A stretch of 62,929 nt of DNA, the filler included, from Kipferlia bialata (lineage: Eukaryota): the NCBI GenBank assembly GCA_003568945.1. It is 5 parts of 5 records of this genome, joined end to end, with 100 filler letters (N's around TTAATTAATTAA, not from the genome) between each part and the next. Parts side by side here need not be neighbours in the genome. Positions count along the whole stretch, not along the records: positions 47,988 to 58,052 come from BDIP01000494.1; 4 more parts are not named here. One strand, 5' to 3'. Positions 55,780-57,698 of the stretch are shown here, piece by piece. Both the position numbers and the translations under genes were made by a program. The first letter of the stretch is position 1, and every line of letters starts with the position of its first letter. The notes under the pieces were generated by a model that saw only the letters and a program-made list of their open reading frames with translations, searched no databases and was not told the origin of the DNA.

Positions 55780-57698
55780 GTGTGTGTGTATATTCATACT
55801 GTATATGCATAGTGATAGTGAGGGTGTCACTATCAACAGGGACAGTGACCGCAGGTACTCTGTATATATGTATATATACATTCACAGTATCAGTAGTGTA
55901 TTCTAACCCCAGGCCAGGCTGCCATTGAGGGCATCTATACATACTATTGCATCATTGCCATATATTACATAGACATAGACACATTGTAGCAATCTAACCC
56001 CAGGCGAGGCTGCCATATAGCATATTATCAGTAGTGTATTCTAATCTAAGGCTATATACATGCATATATGTATTATTGCTAGTCTAACCCTAAGGCGAGG
56101 CTGCCATTGAGGGCATCTATGCCGGTGACAACTCCACCTCTGAGGGATGTGGGCTGGCAGTGATAAACGAGGTATATAAGATACATATAATGTGTGTGTG
56201 TATCTATATATGTATATGCTACATCACCTCTGAGGGGTGTGGGCTGGCAGTGATTAATGAGGTAAGTAGGATATATACAATAATAGGTATATAAAATAAT
56301 TTCAATGAGTATATATATATATAAATATATATGCTTCTCCACCTCTGAGGGATGTGGGCTGGCAGTGATTATTGAGGTATATTGTATGCATATGTCTTGT
56401 CTCCCCAGTCAAGAGATGTAGTATACTCTATCCCCCCGCTCTCTTACCCTAGGACGATGCTTGCCTGTGGCTGATACTCTCTCTCTCTCTCTTCCTCCAC
56501 GTGTATCTCTTATGCCCTAGGACGATGCCTGCCTGTGGGTGATACTGGATGTGGACGACCTGGTGGTGTCGGAGGTATGATTATAAATGTAAATTATGTA
56601 CTACATAACTATATATTAGCAACTTTTGCTATTGTATATTAATTTACTATGTTATGATGGATGTGGATGACCTGGTGGTGGCAGAGGTATAGTATCAAGT
56701 ATATAGCTGTATATTTACTATATCCACTCTATACTACTGTACAAGTACGGTATATATGTATACTCATATTACTATATGTTATGATGGATGTAGTGGTGGC
56801 AGAAGTATGTATGTAAGCTTAGTGGTAGTACATATACTGTTTTCTCTAACCGTTACCCTTTCCCATGGCTACATTGTGTGCTGGCGACTCCCTGATTTTC
56901 ATATACATACATGTATGTATATACCAGGTCATTGTATCAACTATATATACAGTTTCTGTATAAGTCTCACACCTGTCTCCTATAGCCACCTTGTGTGCCG
57001 GTGACTCCCAGGTATATATACGAATACACGTATATTGATATATATACAACAGACTAATATATATATAGTTCTGCTTTTATATCTCCAGTCTCATCCTAGG
57101 CACCGTCCTATGGTCACATTGTGTGTGCCGGTGACACCCAGATAGATGAGGAGAGCTTCACCCGGTATAACGACTTCGGGAAGTTACTGCTAGGTGTGTA
57201 TATACAGTGTATTAATATGTAGGTATTTGTATAGAAGTGTCCATATAGGTATATACAGATAGATGAAGAGAGCTTCACTCGGTACAACGACTTTGGAAAG
57301 CTGTTGTTAGGTAATCAGGCGATATATATAGCATATAGAATTCCAGTATGCTATGAATCGATGATGCATCCTCACTTCGGCGCTGCTACTGTCTCTCTCT
57401 CTTTCCTTCTCTCTCCTTCTGTCTTTATATCTAGTATTGATTCTCCTCTCACTGTAGGCACTGACTTTGAGCAGGCTGGTAATGTGTATGTGGTGCCATA
57501 CACAAGAGGGAGGCAGAGGACAGTGTTGAGTGAGGTATATCTATGTCAATTATTTAGAATAAATTCTGTCCCAATATATTCTAGTAAATATAAACTCACC
57601 CCCAGAGCACTGGTCTTGTCTCTGCTGACTTCTCCCGCATAGTCACAGCCACACTGGAGGCCAGACACGTGTGCCCACAGGTATATATGTATATCCAC

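Follow-up and report, generated by a model that had tools for sequence, protein, structure and literature searches.

The stretch of Kipferlia bialata DNA analysed here (the window, 62,929 nucleotides) consists of five separate scaffolds joined by artificial N-flanked linkers at positions 11490-11589, 29691-29790, 47888-47987 and 58053-58152; adjacency across the linkers is therefore not real. The introns of several of its genes contain partial copies of the neighbouring exons, which we call echoes. The gene under study, which lies in the segment 47988-58052, and the genes of the comparison set are:

48375..57975, plus strand, RCC1-like gene with 23 exons, partial because the scaffold end cuts it; exact match of KIPB_002808
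14605..29478, minus strand, PEP-synthase-like gene (PPDK_N and PEP-utilizers) with 46 exons, modelled from a database protein and Pfam; comparison set
11670..13677, plus strand, gene fragment, presumably ABC-transporter-like from its motifs, hand-built model; comparison set
43435..47551, plus strand, gene that we take to be eIF2B-delta-like, hand-built model; comparison set

The RCC1-like label of the initial annotation is borne out by Pfam, with WD40_RLD matching at an E value of 1e-76 (258.7 bits against a cut-off of 150) and RCC1 at 61 against 21.7. The best WD40_RLD stretch spans residues 55-369, while the codons echoed at the locus described below are residues 548-565, outside that stretch. 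An exon query of this gene returned a single protein, P0001, named Kipferlia bialata KIPB_002808. At a score of at least 30, the gene contains 44 echoes in 17 of its 22 introns; the PEP-synthase-like gene contains 60 in 33 of 45, the ABC-transporter-like fragment eight in four of five and the eIF2B-delta-like gene seven in five of 19. The product of the minus-strand gene at 14605-29478 is called pyruvate, water dikinase by one source. The PPDK_N/PEP-utilizers family is widespread in bacteria, and the 46-exon gene is possibly an old lateral transfer that later gained 45 introns.

Echo density differs tenfold between 11590-29690 and 47988-58052 on the one hand and 1-11489 and 58153-62929 on the other, and follows low GC; recombination rate or expression level possibly lies behind these scaffold differences. 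Short direct repeats number 5.6-6.5 per kb in two AT-rich segments and 0-1.4 in the three others. Arrays of three to four echoes with similar spacers, at 22075-22550, 53040-53370 and 44350-44570, look like secondary duplications of echoes. The N gaps at 19620-19700, 45140-45260 and 46600-46690 have near-identical repeats on both sides, more likely scaffolding overlaps than echoes. In the genes that we take to be RACK1-like (38650-39670, minus strand), Ran-like (40218-40930, plus strand) and ribosomal protein S3-like (8220-8850, minus strand), introns are few and echoes are not visible. Past the donor at 37239, which ends a presumably dynein-heavy-chain-like gene, about 1 kb of unrelated sequence with a short ORF-like stretch (37240-38250) is a possible insertion.

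Splicing of the RCC1-like gene was followed in a 3013-nt contig of run X2, a run taken as RNA by a guess that its seven GT..AG joints support. This RNA-like contig spans eight exons without a difference; among its joints are 56574 to 57100 and 57193 to 57458. Around exon 20, the features are:

56521..56574, plus strand, live exon 19, with echoes of its own at 56453-56478 and 56651-56686; RNA-like contig and protein match
56861..56896, plus strand, farther 5' echo of exon 20, with the same 2-nt gap as the nearer one, no acceptor, CTG/AT and no GT at the boundary; score 35
56970..57013, plus strand, nearer 5' echo, the start of exon 20 with the acceptor deleted and the TG run 2 nt shorter, followed by GT at 57012; from sequence
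57100..57193, plus strand, live exon 20 (94 nt, encoding APSYGHIVCAGDTQIDEESFTRYNDFGKLLL followed by G); exact spliced protein match, no differences in the RNA-like contig
57194..57457, plus strand, intron 20, GT..AG, 264 nt, with an echo inside; joint in the RNA-like contig at depth 26
57194..57255, plus strand, 62-nt spacer from the live donor to the echo, TA-rich at its end and without a branch motif; from sequence
57256..57312, plus strand, 3' echo, comprising the final 55 nt of exon 20 and a GT of its own, with nine silent and no replacement differences; present in the DNA contig, absent from the RNA-like contig
57458..57534, plus strand, live exon 21; RNA-like contig and protein match

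As the initial annotation had it, 57139-57193 and 57256-57310 each translate to QIDEESFTRYNDFGKLLL followed by G, and their nine differences are all synonymous. They are spread over eight of the 18 codons, include the pairs TTA and CTG, CTG and TTG, and CTA and TTA, and are all transitions, unlike the pooled echo changes, which show no transition bias (127 transitions and 163 transversions at score 40). At the eight codons the echo reads GAA, ACT, TAC, TTT, GGA, CTG, TTG and TTA. The echo starts at TATACAG/ATA and ends in a GT of its own, and its intron flank is unrelated to that of live exon 20. Under a null in which the copy was dead, nine silent changes out of nine have a probability of about 4e-4; among the 11 echoes with at least eight differences, 0.26 all-silent echoes are expected. 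This echo is not exceptional among those of the window. An assembly slip as its source was rejected, given that a 1380-nt contig of DNA run X1 matches 56340-57680 exactly, with no other letters and no gaps, although X1 is possibly the assembly's own source and hence not independent. The two joints at 56574 to 57100 and 57193 to 57458 make the echo intronic in the main transcript. It is thus a copy of an exon half with one splice site that lies in the intron and is removed by splicing, one of about 100 here.

The upstream echo described earlier is also there: the copy terminates as GAC TCC CAG/gtat at 57011, where the complete exon reads CAG ATA. Both upstream echoes of exon 20 are 2 nt shorter than the live exon, in a TG run; the farther one falls under the score cut for the pooled counts. 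When 56853-57011 is compared with 57100-57141, four of the five variable columns upstream of the shared 2-nt gap are first positions in the live frame, and the same four are third positions in the frame of the 5' echoes (P-M/I-A-T-L-C-A-G-D-S). An older reading of about eight codons may survive in the 5' echoes, the live exon carrying a compensated frameshift.

It had been proposed that such echoes preserve versions of the gene with a shifted intron position, or are intermediates of intron gain by duplication. That they look like other versions of the gene stands, since both copies bear the mark of protein-level selection described below; the shifted intron position does not. Intron gain finds no support either in breakpoint positions, in joints or in the exon itself, and in the complete exon there is no GT at CAG/ATA, which makes AGGT-type intron gain impossible there. 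None of the seven GT..AG joints of the contig over eight exons uses 57011 or 57259, with the proviso that contigs lose rare isoforms. As an acceptor, TATACAG/ATA scores −5.4 and is without a branch motif; this is under all 104 real acceptors (lowest −0.4) and all 40 AG-bearing echo acceptors (lowest −2.9). The AG at 57259 is the exon's own Gln codon. Enrichment of breakpoints at proto-splice sites, tested in this window, is not seen: AG lies near 23 of 57 downstream breakpoints (23.4 expected) and GT near 19 of 44 upstream breakpoints (17.8 expected), while strict proto-splice counts are 14 against 14.5 downstream and three against 3.3 upstream (four with 57011 added by hand).

We consider it very unlikely that the 57256 echo is a minor in-frame alternative exon, spliced from 56574 to 57259 and 14 residues shorter, or a relic of two exons with an intron at CAG/ATA. 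Such a splice would be in frame and free of stops, the donor at 57011 (CAG/gtatat) is strong at 11.4, all nine differences are silent, and the end of the 5' echo and the start of the 3' echo lie at most 3 nt apart. Against this reading stand the missing joint, the poor acceptor and the chance-level proto-splice counts, as well as the farther 5' echo, which has no GT at its boundary. Coincidence of 5' and 3' breakpoints as a general pattern was discarded: it appears on an absolute-length null (9.4 against 17.0 nt) and is gone on a length-scaled one (P 0.20-0.50). Each route through the three in-frame AGs 5' of 57011 meets a stop, and the nearest AG breaks the frame. An in-frame YAG lies near ten of 57 downstream echo starts, five of them scoring below 1, and in the 47 downstream echoes that lack one, pN/pS is still 0.14.

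For the catalogue, each exon was aligned to its neighbouring introns, with a threshold that let through 0.44% of 2047 unrelated pairs. Across six genes of this window, 63 of 104 introns contained echoes, 124 in all; 23 of these echoes, with scores below 36 or not reaching the exon end, were dropped, leaving 101 (57 downstream, 44 upstream) for the pooled analysis. Also left out were 17 matches in non-adjacent introns, the last ABC exon and the genes at 1-11489 and 58153-62929. RNA supports eight exons only, the remaining models coming from two database proteins or being hand-built.

The two largest genes show a clear polarity: of 59 downstream echoes, 51 correspond to the 3' half of the exon and reach its donor end; of 45 upstream ones, 43 correspond to the 5' half and begin at the acceptor; and not one has the opposite polarity. 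No echo carries both splice sites; each has one. Every echo has the geometry of a short head-to-tail tandem duplication spanning one splice site. Coverage of the exon is at most 76%, and fewer than 15 nt of exon are left uncovered in two of 41 cases on one side (11.3 expected) and one of 35 on the other (9.4 expected), as a homology arm would require; limits on uncovered length and on spacers could come from selection on splicing instead. Echo junctions are abrupt and lie at TA repeats in 28 of 57 cases against 22%, and at CT/GA repeats in 22 of 44 against 9%, two to five times the background rate. Echoes of one exon side share breakpoints to within 2 nt in 12 of 25 pairs. The spacer from the live donor to the nearest downstream echo is always at least 47 nt (n=41), and the shortest introns are 48-49 nt; the minimum may reflect splice-site choice. 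Nine of the ten indels in echoes break the frame, which shows that the echoes are dead now.

Two other sources were rejected. Insertion of cDNA would carry echoes across exon-exon junctions, where the three matches at 104 junctions are all acceptor look-alikes, and the echoes retain GT or AG. For a paralogue as source, two exon queries returned one protein each (from 52 and 14 candidates, which is weak evidence) and run X1 contains no variant letters. Whole-exon duplicates that were once mutually exclusive exons under selection and were truncated later would be expected to show silent bias in both copies; they would also leave four types of echo, where two are found, and coverage here stops at 76% of the exon. 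We regard such an origin as highly improbable.

Between the 101 echoes and their exons there are 204 silent and 106 replacement changes (66% silent), giving a pN/pS of 0.19 with a bootstrap range over 56 exons of 0.14-0.25; none of 5000 replicates reaches 0.5, the floor expected if copies are dead from birth and the exon changes only silently. The value is 0.17 with one echo per exon side (n=76) and 0.10 for the nearest 3' echoes, and the result is robust to transition weights from 1 to 8 and to removal of the 57256 echo. Downstream echoes give 0.15 and upstream echoes a weaker signal of 0.29 (nearest upstream 0.33, p 0.04). In 25 trios of an exon and two echoes, the exon has 18 private silent changes to five private replacements, the nearer echo 28 to ten (neutrality predicts 27% silent) and the farther echo 27 to 28. 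Amino acids are replaced conservatively (mean BLOSUM +0.23 against −0.46 over 47 changes, P 0.0014). Silent divergence is flat by distance rank while replacements climb (from 0.026 to 0.067 in downstream echoes), as expected if echoes begin as working alleles and then decay.

These data make it hardly conceivable that the echoes came from ordinary tandem duplication and were dead from the outset, with a silent bias due to selection on the live exon alone and the nine-out-of-nine case being the best pick of many. That explanation covers polarity and frameshifts, but its floor of 0.5 lies well above the bootstrap upper bound, and it predicts at least 99 echo-private replacements where 38 are seen (P 3e-12). 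Control simulations passed through the same pipeline are flat and show that detection creates neither the silent bias nor the gradient described below. In this window the dead-copy model is rejected, unless silent sites of exons mutate several times faster than their counterparts in echoes.

The splice signals tell of selection as well. GT is retained in 54 of 57 and AG in 40 of 44 echoes, while flank identity at positions 7-15 is 0.43-0.45 against a background of 0.30-0.34. On matrices trained on real sites, donors score 8.1 in echoes, 8.5 in real sites and −0.9 at random, and acceptors 7.3, 9.3 and −3.8. With kept splice sites and flanks barely above background, each copy resembles a separately evolved, recently working exon end. 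Both copies are shown to have been under protein-level and splice-site selection, with nearly unrelated intron flanks; the pN/pS of 0.19 and the silent-biased private changes in all copies place their divergence under selection before they were joined. The 25 of 101 echoes with flanks like those of their own exon are no less diverged than the others, which simple shared ancestry does not predict.

Divergence also rises along the copy. From breakpoint to splice site, third positions differ by 0.13, 0.21 and 0.31 (p 4e-8; 47 of 66 echoes), and first and second positions by 0.029, 0.050 and 0.089. If the copy had been identical at first and crossovers had unlinked it later, either no gradient or the opposite one would be expected, whereas a homology-dependent step at the breakpoint would give a gradient in the observed direction.

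On balance, an echo is probably what used to be the working allele: a break in the exon would have been mended with a strongly diverged allele as template, and the former sequence displaced. Breakage, template and joining are all steps that we infer. A double-strand break inside the exon would leave one end to invade a diverged homologue, with the other part of the exon serving as homology. Synthesis would run through what remains of the exon, across the splice site and for 26-156 nt into the intron, and would often halt at a TA or CT repeat. The extended strand would then fail to anneal and be joined to the resident end by polymerase-theta-type end joining, so that the imported half would become part of the working exon and the resident half the echo. 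Splicing takes whichever donor and acceptor bound the complete exon most closely, as shown in seven introns and presumed elsewhere, and the echo would thus be silent and then decay. The donors would be alleles or sister lineages met through outcrossing; because the DNA run has one allele only, with no variant letters in X1 over 54560-57680, other cells, or a hybrid state in the past, would have supplied them. A scan of metagenomes for a donor allele gave 101 pattern matches, of which one locus was confirmed, 33% identical and unrelated.

A toy coalescent of this process reproduces the direction of the gradient, with a range of only 0.13 to 0.23, and requires a third-position diversity of 0.3-0.46. 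The highest eukaryote diversity on record is 0.2 (PMC9305300). That the required diversity exceeds this record is the main weakness of the displaced-allele explanation and leaves room for sister-lineage donors or indirect selection on echoes.

In the second of these, the echoes would be old duplicates on the same chromosome, with pop-out recombination or gene conversion often bringing an echo, splice site included, into the working position. Silent bias, kept GT and AG and unrelated, old flanks would be accounted for jointly, and the breakpoints shared by same-side echoes would point to exchange within arrays. Unequal exchange, however, would refresh the splice-site end, the reverse of the gradient, and the frame-breaking indels speak against echoes that return to service; the rate of exchange would also have to be low enough to let echoes grow old but high enough to give selection a hold, which would itself seem to imply hyperdiversity. 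We regard this as unlikely.

The other option keeps the same repair route and takes the donors from a few hybridising lineages or subgenomes, of a past hybrid or polyploid whose heterozygosity has been lost, and not from hyperdiverse outcrossers. It would relieve the excess over the known record, the mismatch maps are step-like, and only three three-state silent sites occur in the 25 trios, which is compatible with few donors. Yet in eight of the 25 trios all three copies have private silent changes within 10-22 codons, and silent divergence is overdispersed among echoes (chi 148, 100 df), and a handful of donor lineages therefore appears quite unlikely to us.

Repair from diverged alleles would need suitable machinery. 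PMC8516963 states that sex has not been observed in metamonads and that fornicates have neither Ku nor Rad51A and do have Dmc1 paralogues; its supplement has K. bialata entries for PolQ, Spo11 and four Dmc1, and no HELQ row turned up in the part searched. Dmc1 stabilises mismatched joints, according to excerpts of PMC6719624, and in C. elegans mutants failed SDSA with theta end joining leads to tandem duplications, according to excerpts of PMC8654963. A wider reading, which we advance tentatively and rate at somewhat under an even chance, is that K. bialata constantly rewrites exon halves from highly diverged alleles by one-ended, mismatch-tolerant, exon-anchored Dmc1 recombination, archiving the displaced alleles in adjacent introns.

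Tandem duplication from failed SDSA, duplications that join two alleles and intron gain through duplication have each been described on their own. Going by excerpts of PMC8654963, the C. elegans helq-1/brc-1 system with polymerase theta yields head-to-tail copies from about 100 bp upward with an abrupt junction, and an extended break end that is joined and not annealed, as proposed here; it uses a sister template and gives identical copies in repair mutants, whereas K. bialata has allele-like differences, across splice sites, about one per intron, in a wild-type genome. In intron gain by AGGT tandem genomic duplication, as described in parts of PMC3443670 and PMC2891723, a short exon duplication likewise ends up intronic; in K. 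bialata, in contrast, no new intron position arises, an existing splice site is spanned, breakpoints are not enriched at proto-splice sites and the copies show protein-level selection. The heterogeneous ace-1 duplications of mosquitoes also place two different alleles in tandem on one chromosome, but these are whole genes, both expressed and adaptive (excerpts of PMC6121789), while here silent half-exons of 20-80 nt recur in the majority of the introns of some genes. Tandem exon duplication with mutually exclusive splicing resembles the echoes in its adjacent exon copies and silent divergence (excerpts of PMC9013439). The echoes differ from it in having one splice site each and a strict polarity, and those tested are skipped, the RNA-like contig (one contig, eight exons) containing complete exons only. 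In bacterial transformation, homology-facilitated illegitimate recombination imports foreign DNA through one homologous anchor and one non-homologous join; the K. bialata case is unlike it in being eukaryotic and exon-anchored and in leaving the resident sequence as a tandem copy. We found no description in the open-licence literature of a genome whose introns hold about one half-exon copy each, with a silent bias, and the main text of PMC5874029 does not mention duplication.

The finding matters for reasons other than the proposed intron shift. Its scope is one window, six genes, eight RNA-supported exons, contigs and not reads, and one isolate. Untranslated intronic sequence should lack codon-level selection, and about 100 copies here show it, beyond the reach of selection on the live exon. 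The spliceosome of K. bialata is reduced, with 87 of 174 proteins found according to excerpts of PMC6679479, and our results imply that in the majority of introns in these genes it passes over competing splice sites, intact as they are. If echoes are displaced alleles, one genome would be enough to measure the diversity and recombination of a free-living metamonad and its cryptic sex, and repair between diverged homologues would be a route of intron lengthening. Should exon halves be rewritten constantly, each genome would hold thousands of fossil alleles and intron growth would be a by-product; it would also mean outcrossing where sex has never been seen, and a silent diversity at or above the eukaryote record.
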